From IMG/VR virus record IMGVR_UViG_2695420471_000009: a stretch of 13,451 nucleotides of DNA, one strand, 5' to 3'. This document shows positions 1 through 13,451 of the stretch, piece after piece (the stretch's first letter is position 1; every line of letters begins with the position of its first letter). The notes beneath the pieces are model-generated. The model did no database searches. It was not told the origin of the DNA and was given only the letters and a program-made list of their open reading frames with translations. Source of the stretch: a virus. Taxonomy: Duplodnaviria; Heunggongvirae; Uroviricota; Caudoviricetes. The position numbers and the translations under genes are program-made.

Positions 1-240
1 AAAGAACAAATGGTAGTGTCCGCTATTGCCAGTACACCTCATCCATCACCGAAAAAAATTGGCTTTTACACCATTGGCGATAAAAGCATTTACCTGTATG
101 ACCTACGCCGCATGGATGAAATCATGGAGGCTCTTGATAATCGTTCGTCGATGGATTGGTGTGTTGCTGTTCATGATATGAATGCAGGGTTTGATGAAAA
201 GATTTTGTTCCCCTCATCAGTTGAAAGCACTGCGGGTTAA
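1..240 (+). CDS. Hypothetical prophage protein, C-terminal part (reading frame open from window edge)
   Basis: Frame 1 is open from base 1 to a stop at 238-240 and is followed by closely spaced same-strand genes. No family recognised. Confidence 0.4.
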   Translation, partial: KEQMVVSAIASTPHPSPKKIGFYTIGDKSIYLYDLRRMDEIMEALDNRSSMDWCVAVHDMNAGFDEKILFPSSVESTAG

Positions 241-250
241 GGAGTAACAC

Positions 251-418
251 ATGACCACTATTACCAAAGAACGTATTGAATTGTTCATTAAAAACCCGCT
301 TGAAAACGGGCTTACCCGTGGTGAACAAATGGAACTGGCACGGATTGCGCTGGCATCGCTGGAAGCAGAGCCGGTTGTGTTCTGGTTTGAAAAATATCAA
401 GAAGGGGCTACGGCATGA
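251..418 (+). CDS. Small nin-region protein (55 aa), paralog of the next ORF
   Basis: ATG at 251 with GGAG 9 nt upstream; stop overlaps the next start (ATGA at 415-418). Shares N-terminal MTT-x-T-x-E and IAL-x-SL-x-AEP motifs with ORF 415..759. Confidence 0.5.
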
Positions 419-759
419 CGACTTTTACCAGAGAGCAGTTAATAGCTCACGCAGAGGAGACTATTGAAGCACAGAGACTGTGCATACCGGGCACAATCGA
501 CCATGACATCATCCGCACATATAAGATGGATATTGCTGTTCTGGAAATCGCACTGGTATCGCTGGCAGCAGAGCCAGCCGGTAAATTGCATGAATACAAA
601 CCAGTGGGATATCAGCGTCTGGTCGATGAGTTAACCATGCTGGTAAAGCAGTTAACCTGGCAACTGAGGAAAGCGAAGCCAGACTGCAAATTACCGGATA
701 AGGCGATGAGTTATCTGGAGCGGAACGGACTGATAAGCGTGGAGGATATTTTACGATGA
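415..759 (+). CDS. Small nin-region protein (114 aa), paralog family
   Basis: Translationally coupled to the upstream ORF (ATGA). Motifs MTTFTREQL and [10 protein letters not shown] recur in ORFs 251..418 and 4771..5028. Confidence 0.6.
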
Positions 760-839
760 CCTGGCCTGAAGCATTAACAACGGTAGGAATTGCGATGGCG
801 GTGGCGCTGGTGGTGTATTCGATTTGCCGCTGGGGATAA
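756..839 (+). CDS. Possible 27-aa hydrophobic peptide ([27 protein letters not shown])
   Basis: ATG overlaps the upstream stop (ATGA at 756-759). Single predicted membrane-spanning segment. Too short to call firmly. Confidence 0.25.
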
Positions 840-1050
840 AAACGGTTTGCGGGAAAAGGAGAGTTAAGTAGAATTGCAGCGGGTGCTTGAGGCTATCTGT
901 CTCAGGCATGAACACCAAAAGGCAGATAGAGAAAAGCCCCAGTTAACATTACGCGTCCGGCAAGACGCTTAACATTAATCTGAGGCTCAATCTATGAACG
1001 GCAAATCTAGGTTAGCCTCTTACGTGCCGAAAGGCAAGGAGAAGCAGGCT

Positions 1051-1206
1051 ATGAAGCAGCAAAAGGCGATGTTAATCGCCCTGATCGTCATCTGTTTAAC
1101 CGTCATAGTGACGGCACTGGTAACGAGGAAAGACCTCTGCGAGGTACGAATTCGAACCGGCCAGACGGAGGTCGCTGTCTTCACAGCTTACGAACCTGAG
1201 GAGTAA
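1051..1206 (+). CDS. hokD: Hok/Gef-family type I toxin (51 aa), HokD/RelF-like
   Basis: Sequence MKQQKAMLIALIVICLTVIVTALVTRKDLCEVRIRTGQTEVAVFTAYEPEE has the Hok architecture (short basic N-terminus, one TM helix, conserved Cys, acidic C-terminus) and matches HokD/RelF as I recall it. The overlapping longer frame 994..1206 adds 19 codons, like a mok leader. Confidence 0.8.
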   Translation: MKQQKAMLIALIVICLTVIVTALVTRKDLCEVRIRTGQTEVAVFTAYEPEE

Positions 1207-1276
1207 GAGACCAGGCGGGGGAGAAATCCCTCGCCACCTCTGATGGGTCAGGCATCCTCAATGCACCCACACTTAA

Positions 1277-1300
1277 CCCGCTTCGGCGGGTTTTTGTTTT
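1277..1300 (+). terminator. Rho-independent terminator downstream of hok
   Basis: Stem CCCGC / GCGGG with loop TTCG, followed by TTTTTGTTTTT. Confidence 0.6.
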
Positions 1301-1314
1301 TATTTTCAACGCGT

Positions 1315-1344
1315 TTGAATTTTTAGATGGTGCCGGAATAGAAT
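1315..1344 (+). promoter_or_regulatory. Candidate sigma70 promoter upstream of the rem-like ORF
   Basis: TTGAAT, 18-nt spacer, TAGAAT, about 80 nt upstream of the ATG at 1424. Confidence 0.3.
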
Positions 1345-1423
1345 CAAAAATACTTAAGTAGCGCGCAGGGAGAAGAGGGATGGACCCCGAACAGGGGAGT
1401 GCTATTTATCTGGAAGGATTCTG

Positions 1424-1708
1424 TTGATGAAAATCGAAGAATTACGTGAAATTTTTAGTGAAGATGGCCTCTATACTGTGCGCGTTGAGAATGGCGCTAT
1501 TGTCAGCCACTGCCTTCCAGACTACACAATTCTGATAATTCAGCCGTCTTTGCCAGCAGGCACGGGCGGCGCTCTCACGCATTTAAATCTGATTGGTACC
1601 AGCATCCCCCATGCACTGAAGAACAGGCCGAATGGCTCATTCAGTGTTACCGCAGGCGCGGATGCGAGGTTAAAAAAGCCCTTAGCCTCGACTACCGTCA
1701 CTGGATAA
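1424..1708 (+). CDS. Hypothetical protein (94 aa), rem-like by position
   Basis: ATG-ATG start preceded by GGAAGGA. Sits between hok and the DUF968 gene, as rem does in the Qin-type arrangement. C-terminal half is low complexity; same frame as the downstream ORF, separated by a single TAA. Confidence 0.4.
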   Translation: MMKIEELREIFSEDGLYTVRVENGAIVSHCLPDYTILIIQPSLPAGTGGALTHLNLIGTSIPHALKNRPNGSFSVTAGADARLKKPLASTTVTG

Positions 1709-1783
1709 TCTCCGTCAGGCTCCCTTACTCCGAACGGCCAACGCGTCCGTCCCGCACATTCCAGCAACGGATCTGGAGGTAAT

Positions 1784-2842
1784 GTGCGGGTATTACTTCG
1801 ACCTGTTCTGGTACCGGAACTCGGTCTGGTTATCGTTAAGCCAGGCCGTGAATCAATGTCAGCATTCCATAACGGCAGAATACTGGTGGAGCCGGAACCA
1901 AAAAGCATGCGTAATCTGCCGTCCGGGGTCGTTCCTGCCGCTCGCCAGCCGCTGGTGGAAGACAAAACATTGCTGCCGTTTTTCAGTAACGCACGGGTGA
2001 TTCGTGCTGCTGGTGGTGCTGGTGCATTGTCTGACTGGCTGTTGCGCCATATTAAATCCTGCCAGTGGCCACACGGCGATTATCATCACAGCGAAACCGT
2101 CATTCACCGTTATGGTACCGGCGCAATGGTGTTGTGCTGGCACTGCGACAACCAGCTGCGTGACCAGACATCCGAATCACTCGAGCAACTTGCTCATCAA
2201 AACCTGTCAGCATGGATGATTGACGTCATCGGTCACGCAATAAGCGGTACGCAGGAGCGTGAATTATCTCTGGCTGAATTATCCTGGTGGGCGGTCCGCA
2301 ATCAGGTGGCGGACGCGCTACCGGAAGCGGTATTACGTCGTTCGCTGGGGTTGCGTGCGGAAAAAATTCGCTCTGTGTACAGTGAAAGCGACATCATACC
2401 GGGAGAGCAGACAGCCACCAGCATACTGAAGCAGCGCACAAAAAATATTGCGTTACTGCCTCACGTCCACCAGCAACAGAACCCACCACAGGAAAAGACG
2501 GTGGTCAGCATTGCCGTTGATCCGGAGTCACCGGCTCAGTATCTCCAGCGCCAGAAATCACAACGGGAAGAGATGCCTGTATACACGCGCTGGGTAAAAA
2601 CGCAGAAATGCATGACGTGTGGCAATCAGGCAGATGATCCGCATCACATCATTGGTCATGGACTGGGAGGGATGGGAACAAAGGCTGATGATTTGTTTGT
2701 TATTCCGTTATGCCGTAAATGCCGTAACGAACTACATGCCGGAGTAAAAGATTTTGAAGAGAAACACGGCAGTCAGCTGTTGTTGCTGATTCGTTTTTTA
2801 ATGCACGCGAGAAATTCGGGTGTTCTGAAGTGGAAAGCATAA
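1784..2842 (+). CDS. DUF968/YdfU-like prophage protein with C-terminal HNH-like zinc-finger motif
   Basis: 352-codon ORF; track start is GTG at 1784, first ATG at 1856. C-terminal CMTCGN...DPHHIIGHG...IPLCRKCRNELH resembles an HNH/Zn-finger nuclease signature. Stop abuts the rusA start (TAAATG). Confidence 0.7.
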   Translation: MRVLLRPVLVPELGLVIVKPGRESMSAFHNGRILVEPEPKSMRNLPSGVVPAARQPLVEDKTLLPFFSNARVIRAAGGAGALSDWLLRHIKSCQWPHGDYHHSETVIHRYGTGAMVLCWHCDNQLRDQTSESLEQLAHQNLSAWMIDVIGHAISGTQERELSLAELSWWAVRNQVADALPEAVLRRSLGLRAEKIRSVYSESDIIPGEQTATSILKQRTKNIALLPHVHQQQNPPQEKTVVSIAVDPESPAQYLQRQKSQREEMPVYTRWVKTQKCMTCGNQADDPHHIIGHGLGGMGTKADDLFVIPLCRKCRNELHAGVKDFEEKHGSQLLLLIRFLMHARNSGVLKWKA

Positions 2843-3223
2843 ATGACCGAGCGCATAGAATTTGTTTTACCTTACCCGCCGACGGTGAACACTTACTGGC
2901 GTCGTCGTGGCAGCACATATTTTGTATCAAAAGCCGGGGAGCGTTATCGCCGGGCAGTGGCGCTTATTGTTCGCCAGCAGCGGCTGAAATTAAGCCTGTC
3001 CGGAAGGTTGGCAATAAAAATTATTGCAGAACCACCGGATAAGCGCCGCCGTGACCTGGACAATATTCTGAAAGCGCCGCTGGATGCGCTGACGCATGCG
3101 GGGTTGCTAATGGACGATGAGCAGTTTGATGAAATCAATATCGTTCGTGCTCAGCCAGTATCTGGTGGACGTCTGGGGGTGAAGATTTATCCCATAATGC
3201 TTGAAGGGCAGGTCAAAAAATGA
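2843..3223 (+). CDS. rusA: RusA-family Holliday junction resolvase (copy 1)
   Basis: 126 aa with LPYPPTVNTYWRRR and DKRRRDLDN (acidic catalytic cluster) motifs typical of RusA. Stop overlaps the next start (ATGA). Confidence 0.9.
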   Translation: MTERIEFVLPYPPTVNTYWRRRGSTYFVSKAGERYRRAVALIVRQQRLKLSLSGRLAIKIIAEPPDKRRRDLDNILKAPLDALTHAGLLMDDEQFDEINIVRAQPVSGGRLGVKIYPIMLEGQVKK

Positions 3224-3318
3224 AACTGGAAGATTTACCGAAATACTACTCCCCAAAATCCCCCGGCCTGACTGATGCATCGGCCTCAACGTCGAAAGAT
3301 GCGCTGAGTATCACTGAT
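3220..3318 (+). pseudogene. 5' fragment of Q-like antiterminator gene, interrupted by IS2
   Basis: First 33 codons (MKLEDLPKYYSPKSPGLTDASASTSKDALSITD) match the start of the intact copies at 5399 and 6526. The reading frame runs into the IS2 end at 3320; base 3319 is N. Confidence 0.7.
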
Positions 3319-3330
3319 NTGGATTTGCCC

Positions 3331-4236
3331 CTATATTTCCAGACATCTGTTATCACTTAACCCATTACAAGCCCGCTGCCGCAGATATTCCCGTGGCGAG
3401 CGATAACCCAGCGCACTATGCGGATGCCATTCGTTATAATGCTCGAACGCCTCTGCAAGGTTCTTTGCTGCCGTTAACCCGTCTGGTTTGGGCATGATAC
3501 TGATGTAGTCACGCTTTATCGTTTTCACGAAGCTCTCTGCTATTCCGTTACTCTCCGGACTCCGCACCGCCGTGTTCTTCGGTTCAAGTCCCAACATCCG
3601 GGCGAACTGGCGTGTTTCATTAGCCCGGTAGCATGAACCATTATCCGTCAGCCACTCCACTGGAGACGACGGAAGATCGTTGCCGAAGCGGCGTTCCACC
3701 GCTCCCAGCATGACGTCCTGTACTGTTTCACTGTTGAAGCCGCCGGTAGTCACCGCCCAGTGCAGTGCCTCACGATCACAGCAGTCCAGCGCGAACGTGA
3801 CACGCAGTCTCTCTCCGTTATCACAGCAGAACTCGAACCCGTCAGAGCACCATCGCTGATTGCTTTCTTTCACGGCCACTCTGCCTGTATGTGCCCGTTT
3901 CGATGGCGGTACAGCAGGTTTTCGCTCAAGCAACAGCGCATTCTGGCGCATGATCCGGTAAACACGTTTGGCATTGATCGCAGGCATACCATCAAGTTCT
4001 GCCTGTCTGCGAAGCAGCGCCCATACCCGACGATAACCATACGTGGGCAGCTCTCCGATAACATGGTGTATACGGAGAAGCACATCCGTATCATCAGTGT
4101 GACGACTGCGGCGGCCATCCATCCAGTCATCGGTTCGTCTGAGAATGACGTGCAACTGCGCACGCGACACCCGGAGACAACGGCTGACTAAGCTTACTCC
4201 CCATCCCCGGGCAATAAGGGCGCGTGCGCTATCCAC
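3331..4236 (-). CDS. insD: IS2 transposase OrfB (InsD), DDE catalytic domain
   Basis: 301-codon frame with GTG start, overlapping insC in the -1 frame. Sequence is typical of IS3-family OrfB. Confidence 0.85.
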
Positions 4237-4559
4237 TTTTTTGCCCGTCCATATTCAACGGCTTCTTTGAGGAGTTCATTTTCCATCGTTTTCTTGCCGA
4301 GCAGGCGCTGGAGTTCTTTAATCTGCTTCATGGCGGCAGCAAGTTCAGAGGCAGGAACAACCTGTTCTCCGGCGGCGACAGCAGTAAGACTTCCTTCCTG
4401 GTATTGCTTACGCCAGAGAAATAACTGGCTGGCTGCTACACCATGTTGCCGGGCAACGAGGGAGACCGTCATCCCCGGTTCAAAGCTCTGCTGAACAATT
4501 GCGATCTTTTCCTGTGTGGTACGCCGTCTGCGTTTCTCCGGCCCTAAGACATCAATCAT
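4194..4559 (-). CDS. insC: IS2 OrfA (InsC), HTH DNA-binding/regulatory protein
   Basis: 121 aa starting [18 protein letters not shown] at the ATG at 4559 on the minus strand (track ORF extends upstream to 4604). Helix-turn-helix and leucine-zipper-like segment. Confidence 0.85.
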
Positions 4560-4770
4560 CTGTACTCCAATGACTAGTCTAAAAACTAGTATTAAGACTA
4601 TCACTTATTTAAGTGATACTGGTTGTCTGGAGATTCAGGGGGCCAGTCTACGGACATTTTCTGCCTGTGGACCAGGAAAGTGCACGGGTGCTTTCCACTC
4701 CCATGAAGCCCGGCAATCCGCGCAGATACAGTAATAAACGAACTGACAGCAGTAAGATGGAGCGTTTCTT

Positions 4771-5028
4771 TTGAACAACCAGACAATGACTTTTACCCCT
4801 GAACAATTGCGTAAACACGCGCAGGAAATGCTGCGTCATGCTGAACAACTCGAAAAAACGGGCATAACAAAAGACGCTATCCGTAAAGATATGGTACCCG
4901 CGCTTCGGGAACTGATGCAGGCGAAGCATCGCGCACAGAAAGCAGTAGATGAGCTGGTGGACTGTGTGGCAGAGCTGGAAACCAGAGTCGGAAAGTTTGA
5001 AAAACTGGTGCAGGAGGTGCTGCGCTGA
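4771..5028 (+). CDS. Small nin-region protein (85 aa), same paralog family as 415..759
   Basis: N-terminus MTFTPEQLRKHAQE parallels [15 protein letters not shown] of ORF 415..759. Stop overlaps the rusA copy 2 start (TGATG). An alternative start is the ATG at 4786. Confidence 0.5.
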   Translation: MNNQTMTFTPEQLRKHAQEMLRHAEQLEKTGITKDAIRKDMVPALRELMQAKHRAQKAVDELVDCVAELETRVGKFEKLVQEVLR

Positions 5029-5402
5029 TGCGCCATGAGTTTATTTTACCTTATCCGCCGACGGTGAATACTTACTGGCGACGTCGTGACAACACATATT
5101 TTGTATCAAAAGCCGGTGAGCGTTATCGCCGGGATGTGGCGCTTATTGTCCGTCAGCAGCGACTGAAATTAAGCCTGTCCGGAAGACTGGCGATAAAGAT
5201 TATTGCAGAGCCACCGGATAAGCGCCGTCGTGACCTGGACAATATCCTGAAAGCACCACTGGATGCACTGACACATGCGGGAGTGTTAATGGACGATGAG
5301 CAGTTTGATGAAATCAATATCGTTCGTGCTCAGCCAGTATCTGGTGGACGTCTGGGGGTGAAGATTTACCCCATAATGCATGAAGAGCAGGTCAAAAAAT
5401 GA
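5028..5402 (+). CDS. rusA: RusA-family Holliday junction resolvase (copy 2, distinct allele)
   Basis: 124 aa, about 90% identical to copy 1, with differences at the N-terminus and C-terminus (HEEQ versus LEGQ). Confidence 0.85.
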   Translation: MRHEFILPYPPTVNTYWRRRDNTYFVSKAGERYRRDVALIVRQQRLKLSLSGRLAIKIIAEPPDKRRRDLDNILKAPLDALTHAGVLMDDEQFDEINIVRAQPVSGGRLGVKIYPIMHEEQVKK

Positions 5403-6218
5403 AACTGGAAGATTTACCGAAATACTACTCCCCAAAATCCCCTTGCCTGACCGATGCATCGGCCTCAACGTCAAAAGATGCGCTGAGTATCACTGATGTG
5501 ATGGCCGCGCAGGGCATGACACAGAATCGGGCTGAGATGGGGGTTTCTGCGTTCCTTGGGAAAATGGGCATTAGTATGAATGACAGAGAGCGGGCAACAG
5601 AATTGCTGACAGAATATGCACTCAGTCGGTGTGATCGCGTGGCGGCGTTAAGAAAACTCCCGGCAGAAATAAAACCGGCAGTGATGCGTATTATGGCTTC
5701 GTATGCGTTTGAAGATTATGCCCGTAGCGCGGCGAGCAAAAAACAGTGCCCCTGCTGTCACGGAAAAAAATTTATTGAAAGCGAGGTTTTTACAAACAAG
5801 ATCCAGTATCCGGATGGTAAGCCGCCGGTATGGGCAAAGTGTACGAAAGGTGTGTATCCGTCTTACTGGGAAGAATGGAAAAAAGTCAGGGAGGTGGTAA
5901 AAGTTGCCTGTCCGGAGTGTGGCGGAAAGGGTGAGGTTTCCACCGCCTGTAAGGATTGCCGTGGGCGTGGTGTCGCCATTCATCGTGAAGAGTCGGTAAA
6001 ACGTGGTATGCCTGTTATCAGAGACTGCCAGCGTTGTGGTGGTCGTGGCTATGAAAGACTACCATCAACGGAGGCATTTAATGCTATATGCGAGGTGACA
6101 AACCAGATAACACGCGCGTCATGGGAAAAAACAGTTAAGAAATTCTATGATGCGCTGGTGACTCGGTTTGATATTGAAGAAGCATGGGCTGAGCGGCAGT
6201 TAAAAAAGGTAACTAGGT
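5399..6218 (+). CDS. Q-like late antiterminator candidate (copy 2); 3' end runs into an N junction
   Basis: Same protein as 6526..7347 with several substitutions. At N 6219 the frame continues into rusA internal sequence, which creates the 376-aa track ORF. This is a join artefact or recombination point, not a natural fusion. Confidence 0.55.
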
Positions 6219-6219
6219 N

Positions 6220-6529
6220 CACATATTTTGTATCAAAAGCCGGTGAGCGTTATCGCCGGGATGTGGCGCTTATTGTCCGTCAGCAGCGACTGAAATTAAG
6301 CCTGTCCGGAAGACTGGCGATAAAGATTATTGCAGAGCCACCGGATAAGCGCCGTCGTGACCTGGACAATATCCTGAAAGCACCACTGGATGCACTGACA
6401 CATGCGGGAGTGTTAATGGACGATGAGCAGTTTGATGAAATCAATATCGTTCGTGGTCAGCCAGTATCTGGTGGACGTCTGGGGGTGAAGATTTACCCCA
6501 TAATGCATGAAGAGCAGGTCAAAAAATGA
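6220..6529 (+). pseudogene. RusA 3' fragment (copy 3), beginning at the N junction
   Basis: Encodes RusA residues from TYFVSKAGERY to the C-terminus. No start codon or 5' part is present. Confidence 0.6.
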
Positions 6530-7347
6530 AACTGGAAGATTTACCGAAATACTACTCCCCAAAATCCCCTTGCCTGACCGATGCATCGGCCTCAACGTCA
6601 AAAGATGCGCTGAGTATCACTGATGTGATGGCCGCGCAGGGCATGACACAGAATCGGGCTGAGATGGGGTTTTCTGCGTTCCTGGGGAAAATGGGCATCA
6701 GTATGAATGACAGGGCGCGGGCAACAGAATTACTGGCAGATTATGCACTCAGTCGGTGCGATCGTGTGGCGGCGTTGAGAAAACTTCCGGCAGAAATAAA
6801 ACCGGTAGTGATGCGCATTATGGCTTCGTACGCTTTTGAGGATTATGCCCGCAGCGCAGCGAGTAAAAAGCAGTGCCCTTGTTGCTATGGGGAAAAATTT
6901 ATTGAAAGCGTAGTTTTTACAAACAAGGTCCAGTATCCGGATGGTAAGCCGCCGGTATGGGCAAAGTGTACGAAAGGTGTGTATCCGTCTTACTGGGAAG
7001 AATGGAAAAAAGTCAGGGAGGTGGTAAAAGTTGCCTGTCCGGAGTGTGGCGGAAAGGGTGAGGTTTCCACCGCCTGTAAGGATTGCCGTGGGCGTGGTGT
7101 CGCCATTCATCGTGAAGAGTCGGTAAAACGTGGTATGCCTGTTATCAGAGACTGCCAGCGTTGTGGTGGTCGTGGCTATGAAAGACTACCATCAACGGAG
7201 GCATTTAATGCTATATGCGAGGTGACAAACCAGATAACACGCGCGTCATGGGAAAAAACAGTTAAGAAATTCTATGATGCGCTGGTGACTCGGTTTGATA
7301 TTGAAGAAGCATGGGCTGAGCGGCAGTTAAAAAAGGTAACTAGGTAA
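6526..7347 (+). CDS. Q-like late-gene antiterminator candidate (273 aa) with four DnaJ-type CxxCxGxG zinc-finger repeats
   Basis: Lies after rusA and immediately upstream of a lambda-type pR' promoter, pause element and tR' terminator. Repeats CPCCYGEK, CPECGGKG, CKDCRGRG, CQRCGGRG. Q assignment is by position and context, not by recognised homology. Confidence 0.65.
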   Translation: MKLEDLPKYYSPKSPCLTDASASTSKDALSITDVMAAQGMTQNRAEMGFSAFLGKMGISMNDRARATELLADYALSRCDRVAALRKLPAEIKPVVMRIMASYAFEDYARSAASKKQCPCCYGEKFIESVVFTNKVQYPDGKPPVWAKCTKGVYPSYWEEWKKVREVVKVACPECGGKGEVSTACKDCRGRGVAIHREESVKRGMPVIRDCQRCGGRGYERLPSTEAFNAICEVTNQITRASWEKTVKKFYDALVTRFDIEEAWAERQLKKVTR

Positions 7348-7352
7348 CAAGG

Positions 7353-7380
7353 TTGATTTTTCCGGAATCTGTGGTAAATT
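7353..7380 (+). promoter_or_regulatory. Late promoter pR'-like (TTGATT, 16-nt spacer, TAAATT) with downstream AACGAT pause element at 7387-7392
   Basis: Resembles lambda pR', which has a GGTAAATT -10 region and an AACGAT sigma70-dependent pause element in the initial transcribed region. Lies 6 nt after the Q-like stop. Confidence 0.6.
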
Positions 7381-7386
7381 CGTCAT

Positions 7387-7452
7387 AACGATGGGCGTTT
7401 TATGCCTGACGTTAGAAGAGTTTCTACAACCCGCCGCCGAGCGGGTTTTTTA
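7387..7452 (+). ncRNA. Short pR'-to-tR' terminated transcript (lambda 6S-like / StxS-like candidate)
   Basis: Inferred from promoter and terminator positions only. The start coordinate is a guess. Confidence 0.35.
7429..7452 (+). terminator. tR'-like intrinsic terminator
   Basis: Stem CCCGC / GCGGG with loop CGCCGA, followed by TTTTTTAT. Confidence 0.65.
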
Positions 7453-7571
7453 TGACTGAAATCGCGTCAGTACAGTAAACGCGCTGGTGGCGGTGAATAC
7501 CTGTCTTTCAGCTTGCTGGCTTTTTCGACAAGAGTTATTGGTGTGTCACGTTAACCGGAAAAGGAAAAGAC

Positions 7572-7769
7572 ATGCTAAAACAGCAGGATATGACAGAAAC
7601 CGCCAGAGTGGTGTTTAATGAATTAAGCGTTACCGAACCGGCGACAGTCGGGGAGATAGCGCAGAATACTTACCTTTCACGCGAACGCTGCCAGTTAATA
7701 CTGACCCAGCTGGTTATGGCGGGTCTGGCAGACTATCAGTTCGGTTGTTACAGACGCCTTCCGCAGTGA
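7572..7769 (+). CDS. Hypothetical 65-aa protein, possible small winged-helix/HTH
   Basis: Good RBS (AAGGAAAAG, 4-nt spacer, ATG). Stop lies within a terminator hairpin. No family recognised. Confidence 0.5.
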   Translation: MLKQQDMTETARVVFNELSVTEPATVGEIAQNTYLSRERCQLILTQLVMAGLADYQFGCYRRLPQ

Positions 7770-7780
7770 AGGCTTTTTTA
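7756..7780 (+). terminator. Intrinsic terminator overlapping the stop of the 65-aa ORF
   Basis: Stem GCCTTC / GAAGGC with loop CGCAGT, followed by TTTTTTATTT. Confidence 0.5.
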
Positions 7781-7796
7781 TTTGTGGTAAATGGGC

Positions 7797-7827
7797 GGCT
7801 GGTGGGTGTTAGGGGCACCCACCAGCC
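7797..7827. repeat. Perfect 12-bp inverted repeat (GGCTGGTGGGTG / CACCCACCAGCC) with 7-nt loop, upstream of the methyltransferase
   Basis: Seen directly; no T-run follows, so it is not a classic terminator. The second repeat copy begins inside this loop, right after the N run. Confidence 0.5.
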
Positions 7828-7919
7828 ATCTGCTCATGCGTTGGGTTCACAAGCAAACCTCAGGCCCACTGCTTTGCGCAAAAGCAGAATGAGCCTATCA
7901 GAGACAGGCTTAATGATCC

Positions 7920-8978
7920 ATGCTTAATACTGTAAAAATATCCAGTTGTGAGTTAATCAACGCCGACTGCCTGGAATTTATCCGGTCGTTACCCGAAAAT
8001 TCTGTTGACCTGATAGTCACGGACCCGCCGTACTTTAAAGTGAAGCCTGAGGGCTGGGATAACCAGTGGAAGGGCGACGATGATTACCTGAAGTGGCTGG
8101 ACCAGTGTCTGGCGCAGTTCTGGCGGGTGCTGAAACCTGCCGGAAGTCTTTACCTGTTCTGTGGTCATCGCCTGGCATCTGATATCGAAATCATGATGCG
8201 TGAACGCTTCAGTGTGCTGAACCATATTATCTGGGCGAAGCCGTCCGGACGCTGGAACGGATGCAACAAGGAAAGCCTGCGGGCGTATTTCCCCGCCACA
8301 GAGCGCATTCTGTTCGCGGAACATTATCAGGGGCCGTATCGTCCGAAAGATGCCGGGTATGCGGCGAAGGGCAGTGCACTGAAACAGCATGTGATGGCCC
8401 CGCTGATTTCTTACTTTCGTGATGCGCGAGCTGCCCTGGGGATAACGGCAAAACAGATTGCAGATGCCACAGGAAAGAAAAACATGGTGTCGCACTGGTT
8501 CAGTGCCGGTCAGTGGCAGTTGCCGAATGAAAGCGATTATCTGAAATTACAGGCGCTGTTTGCCCGGGTGGCAGAAGAGAAGCATCGGCGTGGTGAACTG
8601 GAAAAGCTCCACCACCAGCTGGTGGATACGTATACCTCACTGAACCGGCAGTATGCGGAGCTGCTGAGTGAATATAAACATCTGCGGCGGTATTTTGGCG
8701 TGACGGTGCAGGTGCCGTATACCGATGTGTGGACGCATAAACCGGTGCAGTTCTATCCCGGGAAACATCCGTGCGAAAAACCGGCAGAAATGCTGCAGCA
8801 GATAATCAGCGCTAGCAGTCGTCCGGGTGACCTGATTGCAGATTTTTTCATGGGGTTGGGTTCGACAGTGAAAGCGGCACTGGCGCTCGGGCGTCGTGCA
8901 ATTGGCGTTGAGCTGGAGACTGAACGTTTTGAGCAGACGGTTCGGGAAGTACAGGATTTAGTCAGCCAGAACGGATGA
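7920..8978 (+). CDS. DNA methyltransferase, beta-class N6-adenine/N4-cytosine type (copy 1)
   Basis: DPPY catalytic motif (TDPPYF) near the N-terminus and AdoMet motif FxGxGS (DFFMGLGST) near the C-terminus. This motif order defines the beta class. No restriction endonuclease gene is adjacent. Confidence 0.85.
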   Translation: MLNTVKISSCELINADCLEFIRSLPENSVDLIVTDPPYFKVKPEGWDNQWKGDDDYLKWLDQCLAQFWRVLKPAGSLYLFCGHRLASDIEIMMRERFSVLNHIIWAKPSGRWNGCNKESLRAYFPATERILFAEHYQGPYRPKDAGYAAKGSALKQHVMAPLISYFRDARAALGITAKQIADATGKKNMVSHWFSAGQWQLPNESDYLKLQALFARVAEEKHRRGELEKLHHQLVDTYTSLNRQYAELLSEYKHLRRYFGVTVQVPYTDVWTHKPVQFYPGKHPCEKPAEMLQQIISASSRPGDLIADFFMGLGSTVKAALALGRRAIGVELETERFEQTVREVQDLVSQNG

Positions 8979-9018
8979 TATTGAAGAATTAATTACGCGT
9001 CGTTATTATGCGGCTCCC

Positions 9019-9094
9019 GGCCCTTTAGCTCAGTGGTGAGAGCGAGCGACTCATAATCGCCAGGTCGCTGGTTCAAATCCAGCAAGGGCCACCA
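9019..9094 (+). tRNA. ileZ: tRNA with CAU anticodon (Met or lysidine-Ile2), ileZ-like
   Basis: Cloverleaf: acceptor GGCCCTT / AAGGGCC, D-arm GCTC...GAGC, anticodon loop CTCATAA, T-arm GCTGG TTCAAAT CCAGC, then A-CCA. Confidence 0.8.
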
Positions 9095-9101
9095 TCACAT
9101 A

Positions 9102-9178
9102 CCGCCATTAGCTCATCAGGAAAGAGCGCCAGCCTTCGAAGCTGGCTGCGCGGGGTTCAAGTCCCCGATGGCGGTCCA
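9102..9178 (+). tRNA. argN: tRNA-Arg (anticodon UCG), argN-like
   Basis: Acceptor CCGCCAT / ATGGCGG, anticodon arm CCAGC CTTCGAA GCTGG, T-arm CGGGG TTCAAGT CCCCG, then CCA. Confidence 0.75.
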
Positions 9179-9191
9179 TTATCTGCATCAT

Positions 9192-9268
9192 GCGTTGTTA
9201 GCTCAGCCGGACAGAGCAATTGCCTTCTAAGCAATCGGTCACTGGTTCGAATCCAGTACAACGCGCCA
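9192..9268 (+). tRNA. argO: tRNA-Arg (anticodon UCU), argO-like
   Basis: Acceptor GCGTTGT / ACAACGC, anticodon arm ATTGC CTTCTAA GCAAT, T-arm ACTGG TTCGAAT CCAGT, then G-CCA. Confidence 0.8.
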
Positions 9269-9282
9269 CACTTATTTTCCCT

Positions 9283-9308
9283 GGCTCGCTTTTGCGGGCC
9301 TTTTTTTT
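9283..9308 (+). terminator. Intrinsic terminator after the tRNA triplet
   Basis: Stem GGCTCGC / GCGGGCC (one G-U pair) with loop TTTT, followed by eight T. Confidence 0.6.
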
Positions 9309-9314
9309 AAATGT

Positions 9315-9527
9315 CTCACAATTCAGACGGTTGACAGTTGTCTGTTTTGCGGGGAGTTTGTTAAAAGAAACTGGCATGGTGAATCCCCCTGTGCGGAGGG
9401 GCAATCAGCGAGTAGGTATATGGGATAATCGCGGATTCAGGTGCTGGTACTGAATTCACCGGGAGGCACCCGGCATCATGCAATGGCACATAGCGCCACT
9501 CTCCAGCCCTCTCCGGAGGGGCTTTTC
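9315..9527 (+). repeat. Conserved ~215-bp GC-rich structured element downstream of tRNAs (copy A)
   Basis: Three copies in the window, with TTGACA near the 5' end and a GC hairpin plus T-rich tail at the 3' end. Copy A has a weaker 3' hairpin and is followed by the N junction at 9546. Confidence 0.5.
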
Positions 9528-9546
9528 TGTGCCGGATACATCACAG

Positions 9547-9607
9547 TTTCTGGAANCGGTTTGATATTGAAGAAGCATGGGCTGAGCGGCAGTTAAAAAA
9601 GGTAACT
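9547..9607 (+). pseudogene. 3' fragment of a third-allele Q-like gene, beginning at the N junction
   Basis: Encodes ...FDIEEAWAERQLKKVTR. A 7-bp deletion relative to 7341-7350 removes the TAA stop. Confidence 0.5.
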
Positions 9608-9610
9608 AGG

Positions 9611-9638
9611 TTGATTTTTCCGGAATCTGTGGTAAATT
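9611..9638 (+). promoter_or_regulatory. pR'-like late promoter (second copy), pause element variant AACTAT
   Basis: TTGATT, 16-nt spacer, TAAATT. Pause hexamer at 9645-9650 reads AACTAT instead of AACGAT. Confidence 0.55.
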
Positions 9639-9686
9639 CGTCATAACTATGGGCGTTTTATGCCTGACGTTAGAAGAGTTTCTACA

Positions 9687-9710
9687 ACCCGCCGCCGAGC
9701 GGGTTTTTTA
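9687..9710 (+). terminator. tR'-like terminator (second copy)
   Basis: Same CCCGC / GCGGG hairpin and T6 tract as at 7429. Confidence 0.6.
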
Positions 9711-9748
9711 TTGCGGAATTAATTACGGACCGTTATTATTCTGCTCCC

Positions 9749-9824
9749 GGCCCTTTAGCTCAGTGGTGAGAGCGAGCGACTCATAATCGCCAGGTCGCTG
9801 GTTCAAATCCAGCAAGGGCCACCA
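9749..9824 (+). tRNA. ileZ: tRNA with CAU anticodon (ileZ-like), copy 2
   Basis: Identical to 9019..9094. Here it sits directly after tR' with no 65-aa ORF or methyltransferase in between, as in Stx-type phages. Confidence 0.8.
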
Positions 9825-9831
9825 TCACAAA

Positions 9832-9911
9832 CCGCCATTAGCTTATCAGGAAGAGCAGACGACACGATAACAGGGTTGTTGGTGCGGGGGCGGGTCCCCG
9901 ATGGCGGTCCA
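9832..9911 (+). pseudogene. Degenerate argN-like tRNA (anticodon arm replaced, non-canonical T-loop)
   Basis: Acceptor and D-arm match tRNA-Arg(UCG), but the region between D-arm and T-stem is unrelated and the T-loop lacks TTCRA. Confidence 0.5.
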
Positions 9912-9924
9912 TTATCGGTATTCA

Positions 9925-10001
9925 GCGTTGTTAGCTCAGCCGGACAGAGCAATTGCCTTCTAAGCAATCGGTCACTGGTTCGAATCCAGTACAGCGCGCC
10001 A
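9925..10001 (+). tRNA. argO: tRNA-Arg (anticodon UCU), argO-like, variant with G-U pair in acceptor stem
   Basis: Same as 9192..9268 except the 3' acceptor strand reads ACAGCGC (A to G change gives a T-G wobble). Confidence 0.7.
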
Positions 10002-10111
10002 TATTCATTCTTCCAGATTCCTTCCGGCAGAGCCTTATACTGAAATATACCTGGCTCAGGATATTGTTGAAAATATTTTATGTTTGTCAAAAATAAAAGT
10101 TCTGTTAAGTA

Positions 10112-10465
10112 TTGATTGAGTGTTTGTTATACGGTCTAATGGTTTTTTCAGCATTAAATATTTATCATTCATATGGTGTGGGTAGAGTGAATATTGATGA
10201 GGCGTCGGGGTGTTTCATCCTTAGGCAGCGTATTGATATAGTCAATGCAGCACGAGCAAAGGCCTTCAGCCGTTTGACAGTTTTGTTCTGTACTCCTGAT
10301 CGTCTTTCGGGAAGAGACGTTATTATTCTGAATAGTGATGCTATACAGAGGGTTTGCGATGAGTTCATGGTTGCTAATTCAGAATTATTTGCTCTTGTTC
10401 AGGAGTACAACAGAATAGCCAGGACCTGTGGTATGGATGAACTTCGGATTACTCATCTGGGGTAG
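10112..10465 (+). CDS. Hypothetical protein in the variable insert downstream of argO (start uncertain)
   Basis: Track ORF starts at TTG; first ATG is 10139 with no clear SD. Lies in a unique 650-bp segment absent from the other two tRNA-downstream copies. No family recognised. Confidence 0.3.
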   Translation: MIECLLYGLMVFSALNIYHSYGVGRVNIDEASGCFILRQRIDIVNAARAKAFSRLTVLFCTPDRLSGRDVIILNSDAIQRVCDEFMVANSELFALVQEYNRIARTCGMDELRITHLG

Positions 10466-10668
10466 ATACATATCTGGATTATCACCTGTTACGGTAAAAA
10501 GTGATTGCTTACTGTTTTTGTGAATGGCATTGCAGCAGCCGGATAATGTCAGTGCTGGCTGACGGTGTGCTGGTGGCGGGTGTGGTGGTTGTTGCTTTCC
10601 CGTTGCTGAAAAAGAAAACGCCAGACTGTTAGCCGGGTATCAGTTAGCGGGAGAAATTTTTAAATACT

Positions 10669-10893
10669 TCACAATTCAGGCGGTTGACTGTTGTCTGGTT
10701 TGCGGGGAGTTTGTTAAAAGAAACTGGCATGGTGAATCCCCCTGTGCGGAGGGGCAATCAGCGAGTAGGTATATGGGATAATCGCGGATTCAGGTGCTGG
10801 TACTGAATTCACCGGGAGGCACCCGGCACCATGCAATGGCACATAGCGCCACTCTCCAGCCCCTCTCCGGAGGGGCTGTTTATATTGATTTTG
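10669..10893 (+). repeat. Conserved GC-rich structured element downstream of tRNAs (copy B, divergent)
   Basis: Homologous to 9315..9527 and 12450..12675 with scattered substitutions (TTGACT instead of TTGACA). Ends with a perfect 8-bp hairpin and T-rich tail. Confidence 0.5.
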
Positions 10894-10934
10894 TCAGATG
10901 TGAGTAAACTCCTTATGGACTAAAACAACAAAGT

Positions 10935-10944
10935 NNNNNNNNNN
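10935..10944. other. Assembly gap (10 N)
   Basis: Run of N. Both flanks end inside inverted-repeat hairpins. Confidence 0.95.
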
Positions 10945-11054
10945 TAGGGGCACCCACCAGCCATCTGCTCATGCGTTGGGTTCACAAGCAAACCTCAGGC
11001 CCACTGCTTTGCGCAAAAGCAGAATGAGCCTATCAGAGACAGGCTTAATGATCC

Positions 11055-12113
11055 ATGCTTAATACTGTAAAAATATCCAGTTGTGAGTTAATCAACGCCG
11101 ACTGCCTGGAATTTATCCGGTCGTTACCCGAAAATTCTGTTGACCTGATAGTCACGGACCCGCCGTACTTTAAAGTGAAGCCTGAGGGCTGGGATAACCA
11201 GTGGAAGGGCGACGATGATTACCTGAAGTGGCTGGACCAGTGTCTGGCGCAGTTCTGGCGGGTGCTGAAACCTGCCGGAAGTCTTTACCTGTTCTGTGGT
11301 CATCGCCTGGCATCTGATATCGAAATCATGATGCGTGAACGCTTCAGTGTGCTGAACCATATTATCTGGGCGAAGCCGTCCGGACGCTGGAACGGATGCA
11401 ACAAGGAAAGCCTGCGGGCGTATTTCCCCGCCACAGAGCGCATTCTGTTCGCGGAACATTATCAGGGGCCGTATCGTCCGAAAGATGCCGGGTATGCGGC
11501 GAAGGGCAGTGCACTGAAACAGCATGTGATGGCCCCGCTGATTTCTTACTTTCGTGATGCGCGAGCTGCCCTGGGGATAACGGCAAAACAGATTGCAGAT
11601 GCCACAGGAAAGAAAAACATGGTGTCGCACTGGTTCAGTGCCGGTCAGTGGCAGTTGCCGAATGAAAGCGATTATCTGAAATTACAGGCGCTGTTTGCCC
11701 GGGTGGCAGAAGAGAAGCATCGGCGTGGTGAACTGGAAAAGCTCCACCACCAGCTGGTGGATACGTATACCTCACTGAACCGGCAGTATGCGGAGCTGCT
11801 GAGTGAATATAAACATCTGCGGCGGTATTTTGGCGTGACGGTGCAGGTGCCGTATACCGATGTGTGGACGCATAAACCGGTGCAGTTCTATCCCGGGAAA
11901 CATCCGTGCGAAAAACCGGCAGAAATGCTGCAGCAGATAATCAGCGCTAGCAGTCGTCCGGGTGACCTGATTGCAGATTTTTTCATGGGGTTGGGTTCGA
12001 CAGTGAAAGCGGCACTGGCGCTCGGGCGTCGTGCAATTGGCGTTGAGCTGGAGACTGAACGTTTTGAGCAGACGGTTCGGGAAGTACAGGATTTAGTCAG
12101 CCAGAACGGATGA
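11055..12113 (+). CDS. DNA methyltransferase, beta-class (copy 2, identical to 7920..8978)
   Basis: Identical 352-aa translation. Part of a ~1.7-kb exact repeat (7810..9500 matches 10945..12635, offset 3135). Confidence 0.85.
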   Translation: MLNTVKISSCELINADCLEFIRSLPENSVDLIVTDPPYFKVKPEGWDNQWKGDDDYLKWLDQCLAQFWRVLKPAGSLYLFCGHRLASDIEIMMRERFSVLNHIIWAKPSGRWNGCNKESLRAYFPATERILFAEHYQGPYRPKDAGYAAKGSALKQHVMAPLISYFRDARAALGITAKQIADATGKKNMVSHWFSAGQWQLPNESDYLKLQALFARVAEEKHRRGELEKLHHQLVDTYTSLNRQYAELLSEYKHLRRYFGVTVQVPYTDVWTHKPVQFYPGKHPCEKPAEMLQQIISASSRPGDLIADFFMGLGSTVKAALALGRRAIGVELETERFEQTVREVQDLVSQNG

Positions 12114-12153
12114 TATTGAAGAATTAATTACGCGTCGTTATTATGCGGCTCCC

Positions 12154-12229
12154 GGCCCTTTAGCTCAGTGGTGAGAGCGAGCGACTCATAATCGCCAGGT
12201 CGCTGGTTCAAATCCAGCAAGGGCCACCA
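12154..12229 (+). tRNA. ileZ: tRNA with CAU anticodon (ileZ-like), copy 3
   Basis: Identical to 9019..9094. Confidence 0.8.
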
Positions 12230-12236
12230 TCACATA

Positions 12237-12313
12237 CCGCCATTAGCTCATCAGGAAAGAGCGCCAGCCTTCGAAGCTGGCTGCGCGGGGTTCAAGTCCC
12301 CGATGGCGGTCCA
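12237..12313 (+). tRNA. argN: tRNA-Arg (UCG), copy 3
   Basis: Identical to 9102..9178. Confidence 0.75.
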
Positions 12314-12326
12314 TTATCTGCATCAT

Positions 12327-12403
12327 GCGTTGTTAGCTCAGCCGGACAGAGCAATTGCCTTCTAAGCAATCGGTCACTGGTTCGAATCCAGTACAACGCG
12401 CCA
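12327..12403 (+). tRNA. argO: tRNA-Arg (UCU), copy 3
   Basis: Identical to 9192..9268. Confidence 0.8.
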
Positions 12404-12417
12404 CACTTATTTTCCCT

Positions 12418-12443
12418 GGCTCGCTTTTGCGGGCCTTTTTTTT
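12418..12443 (+). terminator. Intrinsic terminator after tRNA triplet (copy 3)
   Basis: Identical to 9283..9308. Confidence 0.6.
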
Positions 12444-12449
12444 AAATGT

Positions 12450-12675
12450 CTCACAATTCAGACGGTTGACAGTTGTCTGTTTTGCGGGGAGTTTGTTAAA
12501 AGAAACTGGCATGGTGAATCCCCCTGTGCGGAGGGGCAATCAGCGAGTAGGTATATGGGATAATCGCGGATTCAGGTGCTGGTACTGAATTCACCGGGAG
12601 GCACCCGGCACCATGCAATGGCACATAGCGCCACTCTCCAGCCCCTCTCCGGAGGGGCTGTTTATATTGATTTTG
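12450..12675 (+). repeat. Conserved GC-rich structured element downstream of tRNAs (copy C)
   Basis: TTGACA at 12466; 3' hairpin AGCCCCTC TCCG GAGGGGCT at 12640..12659 followed by a T-rich tail. Confidence 0.5.
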
Positions 12676-12691
12676 TCAGATGTGAGTAAAC

Positions 12692-12725
12692 TCCTTATGG
12701 ACTTTGTTGTTTTAGTCCATAAGGA
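12692..12725. repeat. Perfect 11-bp inverted repeat (TCCTTATGGAC / GTCCATAAGGA) with 12-nt loop
   Basis: Seen directly. Marks the boundary between the GC-rich element and the AT-rich island. Confidence 0.5.
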
Positions 12726-13030
12726 CATATTTGCAGAGTGCAACGGTTATTAAAGCATTCATTCAATACGTTATCTGTATTTGTAGGGCATTCCTGGCTA
12801 TTTTTGATTGAATTCCAGAATGTTTTATTGAATGGTACTACGTTGTAAATGGTTACAGGTAGCACTTTGTTATTGAGCATGATGCCTGTGTGAGTCAGTG
12901 TAAATATACTTTCAGGAGGTAAGAAAGCATCCGATTGATACCAGATTATTAATTTTATTTTACTCCATATGACTGAAAAAGATATTCCGCATGATGGCTG
13001 GATAACTGTATCAATCACAATCCACTTCAT
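12695..13030 (-). CDS. Hypothetical 111-aa protein on the reverse strand within an AT-rich island
   Basis: ATG at 13030 preceded by AAGGAA SD (5-nt spacer) and a TTTACA / TATACT promoter-like pair. A 111-codon open frame is unlikely by chance in DNA this AT-rich. No family recognised. Confidence 0.45.
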
Positions 13031-13290
13031 TTAGTTTCCTTGTTTATGCCTTGCTGGTGATGTTCTGAAAAGTATAAATGATATTTTTGAATGTAAACCA
13101 TAGAGCAGAATTATTTTTCTGATGTTGTTTATTGTTTATTTAAATGCAGGGTGGTTTATATCTCGTCTTGTAGTTTATCCATGCATATCTGCTTGATAAT
13201 CAGGTTTTTATTTAAGGTATGGTTTTGTGTTTTTTCTGTATTACATGTCAGGTATTTTAAAGAATTATTTTTCAGATGGTGGAAAGAACC

Positions 13291-13451
13291 ATGGCATTTA
13301 AACACTATGATGTTGTCAGGGCGGCGCCGCCGTCAGATCTTGCGGAAAAGCTGACACATAAACTGAAAGAGGGCTGGCAGCCGTTTGGTAGTCCGGTGGC
13401 CATAACCCCTTATACCCTGAGGTGTACTGGCAATAGCGGACACTACCATTT
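13291..13451 (+). CDS. Conserved prophage hypothetical protein, N-terminal part (continues beyond window)
   Basis: ATG at 13291; frame open to the window edge (MAFKHYDVVRAAPPSDLAEKLTHKLKEGWQPFGSPV...). GC content returns to the prophage-backbone level. Probably the first gene of the lysis-proximal late region. Confidence 0.55.
   Translation, partial: MAFKHYDVVRAAPPSDLAEKLTHKLKEGWQPFGSPVAITPYTLRCTGNSGHYH

Follow-up and report, generated by a model that had tools for sequence, protein, structure and literature searches.

Two IS-bounded prophage remnants were very probably mis-scaffolded into the tandem rusA/Q array of a draft-genome record

Introduction

In the late region of lambdoid and Stx phages, the genes for the resolvase RusA and the antiterminator Q are followed by a tRNA-Ile(CAU)/Arg/Arg cluster (ileZ/argN/argO-type) and by the downstream holin region; stx in Stx phages sits at the corresponding late-region site. 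The same order is found in the 13,451-nucleotide (nt) stretch of DNA analysed here (IMG/VR virus record IMGVR_UViG_2695420471_000009; hereafter the window), in which the rusA-Q module appears three times in tandem. The loci of the window differ from the phage regions in that they carry no stx genes and are degraded remnants truncated by insertion sequences (IS). We conclude that the tandem rusA/Q array is very probably a scaffolding artefact, in which two IS-bounded lambdoid prophage remnants were mis-scaffolded into one string.

Complete E. coli prophages carry the module in single copy, in the order DUF968-RusA-Q-hyp-methylase-tRNAs-...-IraM-holin, and in the phage records listed among our matches both query copies align to one and the same rusA-Q copy. 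The window has the RusA resolvase gene, with Q adjoining downstream and overlapping rusA, as in all complete loci, and a tRNA cluster following; holin and lysozyme genes lie downstream in related complete loci. The lysis genes themselves are outside the window, IS600 cutting both loci before them.

Two chromosomal loci match the window. Searches with the DUF968 protein and hyp85 led to complete chromosomes of ~4.8 Mb, among them CP000038.1, which we take to be Shigella sonnei Ss046. Locus 1 has the order IS600, small open reading frames (ORFs), hok, Rem, DUF968, RusA (126 aa), Q (273 aa), hyp65, methylase, three tRNAs and STnc100, followed by IS600 in inverted orientation, and its continuous copy between both IS600 copies spans about 6.4 kb. 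All 10 complete chromosomes found via DUF968 carry a single continuous DUF968-RusA-Q-hyp-methylase locus. Locus 2 has the order IS2, helicase stub, hyp85, RusA (124 aa), Q (284 aa), two tRNAs, DUF3927, STnc100, an IraM-like gene, a truncated DUF1737 gene and IS600, and is related to a prophage of E. coli FDAARGOS_944. Both loci are present on one chromosome, CP104423.1, ~670 kb apart and on the same strand (locus 1 at about 1.860-1.867 Mb, locus 2 at about 2.530-2.537 Mb); locus 1 lies at about 1.997-2.003 Mb in CP000038.1. Stretches of Q (internal and at its 3' end) and of STnc100 are identical between the two loci.

The window agrees with locus 1 over positions 1-3318 (99.94%), 5474-6218 (2 mismatches) and 7291-9555 (100%), in the gene order DUF968-RusA-Q-hyp-methylase-three tRNAs and in the left IS600 flank (the right flank is not reached). 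It differs in that it cuts this locus up, partly duplicates it (7810-9475 equals 10945-12610) and interleaves locus 2. With locus 2 it agrees over 3320-5473, 6220-7290, 9557-10921 (100%) and 12611-13451, the junction between truncated DUF1737 and IS600 included; it differs in that the chromosomal IS2 is interrupted and the chromosomal Q is 284 aa long, whereas the window has an intact IS2 and a Q of 273 aa. An 8-nt indel at the Q stop (AACAAGGT; 7341-7353 versus 9607-9614) separates the loci: locus-1 Q ends at TAA (273 aa), and locus-2 Q, without AACAAGGT, continues in frame to 284 aa in complete chromosomes. The locus-2 Q of the window (6526-7347) comes to 273 aa, since at its last codons it passes into locus-1 sequence.

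False joins between contigs are a described hazard of short-read assembly. The pipeline of Page et al., 2016 (Velvet, SSPACE and GapFiller) enters read-pair joins as Ns, which 120 GapFiller iterations then attempt to close, and its authors warn that greedy algorithms 'can lead to false joins' (PMC5320598). S. sonnei had the highest mean contig number of that dataset (405; PMC5320598), which fits its IS load. Scaffolders set overlapping contigs with negative gaps or put gaps between them (PMC3158087, PMC5368935). The window resembles both descriptions, with Ns marking read-pair joins in a repeat-rich species (PMC5320598) and overlapping or duplicated contig ends beside short gaps (PMC3158087, PMC5368935).

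Results

The window contains 13 N bases at four sites (3319, 6219, 9556 and the run 10935-10944), which bound segments A (1-3318), B (3320-6218), C (6220-9555), D (9557-10934) and E (10945-13451). Positions 1-11402 are identical to the retrieved part of whole-genome shotgun (WGS) record CXAW01000147.1 (draft assembly GCA_001254155.1); as this record is also 13,451 bp long, the window is that entire WGS record. It is almost certainly a complete scaffold of a short-read draft genome of S. sonnei. The segments, their joins and the rusA and Q copies are as follows.

42-3318, plus strand: segment A, assigned wholly to locus 1; small ORFs, sok/hok, DUF968, RusA allele 1 and start of Q
2843-3223, plus strand: RusA allele 1 (Pfam PF05866, E about 1e-16)
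3220-3318, plus strand: Q fragment, first 33 codons
3319: single N; locus 1, broken inside Q, probably misjoined to an end of IS2
3320-4650, minus strand: IS2, 1331 bp, bounding locus 2 on the left (annotated IS2 copies match at 99.3-99.6%)
4651-5473, plus strand: segment B, locus-2 part (99.8% to FDAARGOS_944, whose annotation names the genes)
5028-5402, plus strand: RusA allele 2, 124 aa (PF05866, E about 1e-16)
5399-5473, plus strand: first 75 nt of Q, in the locus-2 part of segment B
5474-6218, plus strand: segment B, locus-1 part; remainder of Q (only 2 mismatches to the Ss046 Q from 5474)
5399-6218, plus strand: Q antiterminator of segment B (PF03589, E 1e-53 to 1e-55)
6219: single N; Q stop codon probably misjoined to RusA codon 23
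6220-7290, plus strand: segment C, locus-2 part; RusA allele 2 residues 23-124 and body of Q allele 2 (99.2% to L036, locus 2)
6220-6529, plus strand: third RusA copy, 5'-truncated, residues 23-124
6526-7347, plus strand: Q antiterminator of segment C (PF03589, E 1e-53 to 1e-55)
7291-9555, plus strand: segment C, locus-1 part; Q end, hyp65, methylase, tRNAs, STnc100 (100% to CP000038.1 over 2265 nt)
9556: single N; locus-1 tail probably misjoined to the final 55 nt of locus-2 Q
9557-10921, plus strand: segment D, assigned wholly to locus 2; Q 3' end onward (100% over 1365 nt to L036)
10935-10944: run of 10 Ns; scaffold gap from locus 2 back to locus 1
10945-12480, plus strand: segment E, locus-1 part, duplicate of 7810-9345
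12611-13417, plus strand: segment E, locus-2 part

A first-pass annotation, made from the letters of this DNA, had placed RusA at 2843, 5028 and (partially) 6220 and a Q-like gene at 3220 (as a fragment), 5399 and 6526, and these placements recur in the domain matches (PF05866 at 2843-3223 and 5028-5402; PF03589 at 5399-6218 and 6526-7347), in the truncated RusA copy and in the 33-codon Q fragment. It had also set the breakpoints between modules on N bases, correctly for 3319 and 6219; a further breakpoint given as 9546 belongs to the N at 9556, and the 10-N join was missed. Its reading that the junction at N6219 fuses the Q and RusA frames is borne out: the N stands in place of part of the Q stop codon, giving an in-frame ORF (5399-6529, 376 aa) of Q and RusA residues 23-124. 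This Q-RusA fusion ORF is annotated as a gene in the public record of the window (L024 gene list) and is an artefact.

Self-comparison showed that the repetition goes beyond rusA/Q, the methylase, tRNA and STnc100 modules recurring up to 13451. Positions 2851-3321 and 5030-5500 are 92.2% identical, 5093-6218 and 6220-7345 are 97.2% identical over 1126 nt (ungapped), and 7810-9526 and 10945-12663 are 99.8% identical, with 1666 nt exactly alike (7810-9475 and 10945-12610). The first 55 nt of segment D equal the last 55 nt of segment B (6164-6218) and 7291-7345. The substitutions between the rusA/Q copies are not scattered, as had been claimed: all 32 that separate copies 2 and 3 fall inside 5329-5801, between identical flanks of 236 and 417 nt.

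We assigned segments to loci by diagnostic sites, defined as alignment columns in which locus 1 and locus 2 differ. Segment A follows locus 1 at 44/44 sites, and window positions 1-3321 share 99.94% identity with locus 1 of CP000038.1 and of nine further complete chromosomes, with differences only at position 1320 and at N3319. This alignment passes N3319, so the true sequence continues there into an intact 273-aa Q. In segment B, 43 sites between 5029 and 5473 follow locus 2 and one (5329) follows locus 1; the 31 sites of 5543-5801 follow locus 1. Segment C follows locus 2 at 60 diagnostic sites (6244-7272) and then locus 1. Segment E follows locus 1 at 26 sites up to 12480 and locus 2 in 81 columns from 12611 to the IS600 junction; positions 12439-13451 are 99.4% identical to L036 (locus 2), this junction included. 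The switches of locus lie inside sequence identical in both loci, at 5474-5542 (69 nt), about 7273-7341 (~69 nt) and 12481-12610 (130 nt).

By these assignments, segment A appears to be pure locus 1 and segment D pure locus 2, and segments B, C and E appear to be chimeras. The real rusA/Q alleles would then number two, the apparent third being a chimera of them, and the true continuation of segment A would be the Q part of segment B followed by the distal part of segment C. The RusA of segment B occurs exactly in only eight contigs, all <=17 kb and CXAW01000147.1 among them; these matches are confined to contigs of the draft series of the window and include no complete genome. An origin in E. 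coli O157 or another STEC was considered and rejected: among complete E. coli genomes segment C finds at best 97.4% identity, whereas exact protein matches led to the ~4.8-Mb chromosomes, Ss046 among them.

We searched for the single-N joins in 5,426 complete E. coli genomes with 101-nt queries centred on N3319, N6219 and N9556, counting a join as spanned if one place covered >=80% of the query. None of the genomes spans the N3319 junction (0/5,426; 3,579 match one half or the other), the N6219 junction (0/5,426; 2,057 match one half or the other) or the N9556 junction (0/5,426; 1,430 match one half or the other). Searches for the exact junction patterns, a wildcard standing for the N, found no match in the viral, species-representative genome or metagenome collections, in which the source record itself is also unmatched. 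On a canonical prophage (L001), every segment that follows an N jumps backwards:

Segment A: L001 positions 4001-9270
Segment B: L001 positions 8803-9983
Segment C: L001 positions 8863-12799
Segment D: L001 positions 9934-12839
Segment E: L001 positions 10455-13556

The segments are colinear with a real locus or chimeric in shared sequence, and the joins are not colinear. The joins link non-homologous points (the IS2 tip follows Q codon 33, and RusA codon 23 follows the Q stop codon), each junction consists of one N or a run of them, and the segment boundaries differ at each join. Differences between the copies are block-wise and match two distant loci, unlike the divergence that follows a duplication. 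A 5-bp target duplication is missing from the IS2 at N3319 (CTGAT/N versus CGGAC). We considered whether IS2 had really inserted into Q at 3318 and rejected this, since the duplication is lacking, Q is intact in complete chromosomes and the position of the join varies among sister drafts. An identification of the element at 3320 as IS629 was likewise rejected, as annotated matches show IS2.

Seven sister contigs with a chimeric RusA, from the same accession series, have these modules too, in other orders. Six of the sisters contain Ns; in those, every break of colinearity is at an N, and the N flanks vary by draft. The break in locus 1 (in coordinates of the Ss046 locus) moves accordingly:

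Window: 11535
L025: 11599
L027: 11642
L026: 11828
L023: 12182

That the joins differ among isolates points to a greedy scaffolder and gap filler acting on paralogous loci; a real insertion or duplication would not shift in this way. In one sister, L023 (1-12089), 2.7 kb of locus 1 stands twice at 100% identity, flanking an inserted locus-2 piece. In another, L029, a lone N around position 1610 lies between ends that share 4 nt of true sequence (ACTAGGT N AGGTTGATT). Both are the same class of artefact in other public records. The WGS prefixes of three sisters (CXFM, CXFS and CXFU) appear, as S. sonnei assemblies of the Velvet, SSPACE and GapFiller pipeline, among the entries listed from the supplementary table to Page et al., 2016 (PMC5320598).

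Discussion

Every segment of the window originates from two loci, its single-N junctions are absent from the complete genomes searched, and the joins vary among sister drafts; the exact software steps behind this particular record we infer. Read pairs over the shared stretches and the IS copies would lead a scaffolder to chain contigs of both loci, and gap filling would then lengthen contig edges with reads from either paralogue. The outcome would be duplicated and chimeric segments (B, C and E) with 1 N or 10 N left per join. A single N may be the remnant of a nearly closed or negative gap in these tools; on a single-N convention as such, our literature search returned only general statements on negative gaps. 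Reference-guided contig ordering was also considered, given that the segment starts ascend on L001. A read-pair scaffolder with a gap filler accounts better for the chimeras, the two not being formally distinguished.

Several points weigh against mis-scaffolding as set out here. The case is built on sequence comparison, which bears only indirectly on an absence of junction-spanning reads, and the isolate could differ in structure from the complete reference genomes. The overlaps of the segment ends (24, 25, 34, 41 and 55 nt) fit no one k-mer size; a single de Bruijn k, at which the 55-nt overlap of segments B and D had hinted (k=55), was rejected, as none of the other ends (24, 25, 34 and 41 nt) fits it. 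Finally, CXAW is not among the entries listed from the supplementary table (PMC5320598), and organism and pipeline are assigned from the sister accessions and from sequence identity.

The first-pass annotation had left two layouts side by side, a real tandem or recombinant prophage array and contigs of several lambdoid prophages concatenated by the assembler. A real array, with rusA-Q modules tandemly duplicated or recombined in the isolate and Ns as ambiguous base calls, has the deposited sequence in its favour, which reads so, and lambdoid prophages do recombine, with many related copies in single genomes (as many as 16 matches to segment C in one genome). We nevertheless consider it highly improbable: the joins tie non-homologous points, all of them on Ns, the IS2 tip has no target duplication, the junctions are in no complete genome or phage examined, complete S. 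sonnei chromosomes run continuously through N3319, and the sister drafts carry other joins. Of the two layouts, concatenation of lambdoid prophage contigs is the one retained. The accompanying claim that the copies are alleles from different prophages and not a recent duplication survives in part: two remnants ~670 kb apart supply them, and the third allele appears to be a chimera. An extra allele could also come from a mixed culture or a contaminating second strain, from which allelic contigs can arise and then be chained by scaffolders; the same scrambling in several independent sister drafts makes this improbable in the extreme, and no third haplotype is needed, since the two loci of single complete chromosomes cover all diagnostic sites.

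A narrower alternative accepts that the joins at Ns are artefactual and holds that some of the chimerism in B, C and E is real gene conversion or recombination between the remnants. The switch points do fall within sequence identical in both loci, as crossovers of homologous recombination would too; FDAARGOS_944 shows natural mosaics of these modules, and the RusA of segment B comes back unchanged in 8 drafts. These recurrences, on the other hand, are all in draft-series contigs of <=17 kb and never in a complete genome, and segment B flips from locus 2 to 1 to 2 to 1 to 2, with single-base flips at 5329 and 6145, a pattern that resembles a consensus of mixed paralogues. The window also carries both locus versions of the same stretches, in more copies than two loci supply. 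Moreover, the loci are in direct orientation in CP104423.1, so a crossover would delete or duplicate ~670 kb. We regard this alternative as unlikely, and as quite unlikely the reading in which the remnants ~670 kb apart truly exchanged sequence by gene conversion in this isolate or sublineage. The artefact would then be limited to the N joins, and part of the chimerism, for example the pairing of RusA allele 2 with Q allele 1 in segment B, would have a biological origin.

Mis-scaffolding of two remnants leaves the finding with no biological weight, the genes being ordinary, known lambdoid prophage-remnant genes of S. sonnei; its relevance is to data hygiene. Two artefactual proteins are already in protein collections, the 376-aa fusion and the chimeric 124-aa RusA (a locus-2 backbone with the locus-1 base at 5329, found in eight draft scaffolds only). 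Genome scans and protein databases can pick up false 'novel fusion' or 'tandem array' findings from such sequences. Flagging direct repeats whose copy boundaries fall on N bases would filter against this class of false positive.

Other features of the window

The remaining features are listed below.

1-41, minus strand: IS600 terminal 41 nt, left boundary of locus 1 (match to annotated IS600)
881-1206: hok/sok toxin-antitoxin pair of locus 1, lying upstream of DUF968 (Rfam sok, 112 bits; Pfam HOK_GEF)
1784-2842, plus strand: DUF968 (Pfam)
4194-4604 and 3331-4236, minus strand: IS2 orfA and orfB (Pfam HTH_Tnp_1 and rve; IS3-family element)
4651-4774, plus strand: replicative helicase gene, 3' stub
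4771-5028, plus strand: hyp85
7572-7769, plus strand: hyp65
7920-8978, plus strand: N6/N4 DNA methylase (Pfam)
9019-9268, plus strand: tRNA-Ile(CAU)/Arg/Arg (ARAGORN)
9345-9534, plus strand: STnc100 small RNA family (Rfam)
9749-10001, plus strand: tRNA-Ile and tRNA-Arg of segment D (ARAGORN)
10501-10632, plus strand: DUF3927
10698-10887, plus strand: STnc100 of segment D (Rfam)
10922-10934: contig end folded back over 13 nt, with the loop of a hairpin (12-bp stem) inverted (alignment with segment E and L001)
11055-12113, plus strand: methylase, second copy
12154-12403, plus strand: three tRNAs, second copy
12480-12669: STnc100 of segment E (Rfam)
12695-13030, minus strand: IraM (named in annotations of related loci)
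13151-13354, plus strand: DUF1737 ORF, truncated
13418-13451, plus strand: IS600 first 34 nt, right boundary of locus 2

The IS2 that is intact in the window is split in the locus 2 of complete chromosomes by an insertion of ~2 kb with IS21-type genes (rve and IstB; L031/L036 4532-7880). Either the isolate is without this insertion or the IS2 is a collapsed consensus of other copies. In the sister scaffold L028, IS21-type genes adjoin hyp85.

The scaffold starts and finishes with one IS600 terminus, inverted between the two ends: bases 8-41 and 13418-13451 are reverse complements of each other. On the left it bounds locus 1 and on the right locus 2, and the contigs end 34-41 nt inside IS600. 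The 34-mer at the left end adjoins an annotated IS600 transposase in L012, and the junction is also present in complete chromosomes.

Two contig ends lie within hairpin loops with 12-bp stems (10898-10934; 7793-7827, which corresponds to the start of segment E at 10945). Segment E starts inside the hairpin loop GGCTGGTGGGTG...CACCCACCAGCC, and segment D ends in a fold-back with the loop inverted; bases 10910-10934 are the reverse complement of 12701-12725.

The three STnc100 matches (124-134 bits) lie downstream of tRNA clusters, and their 130-nt core, in which segment E changes locus, is identical in both loci. ARAGORN found three tRNA sets in the window. It calls the CAU-anticodon tRNAs (9019-9094, 9749-9824 and 12154-12229) Met, whereas RefSeq annotates the homologous genes as tRNA-Ile, a reading of the CAU anticodon that would need lysidine modification.

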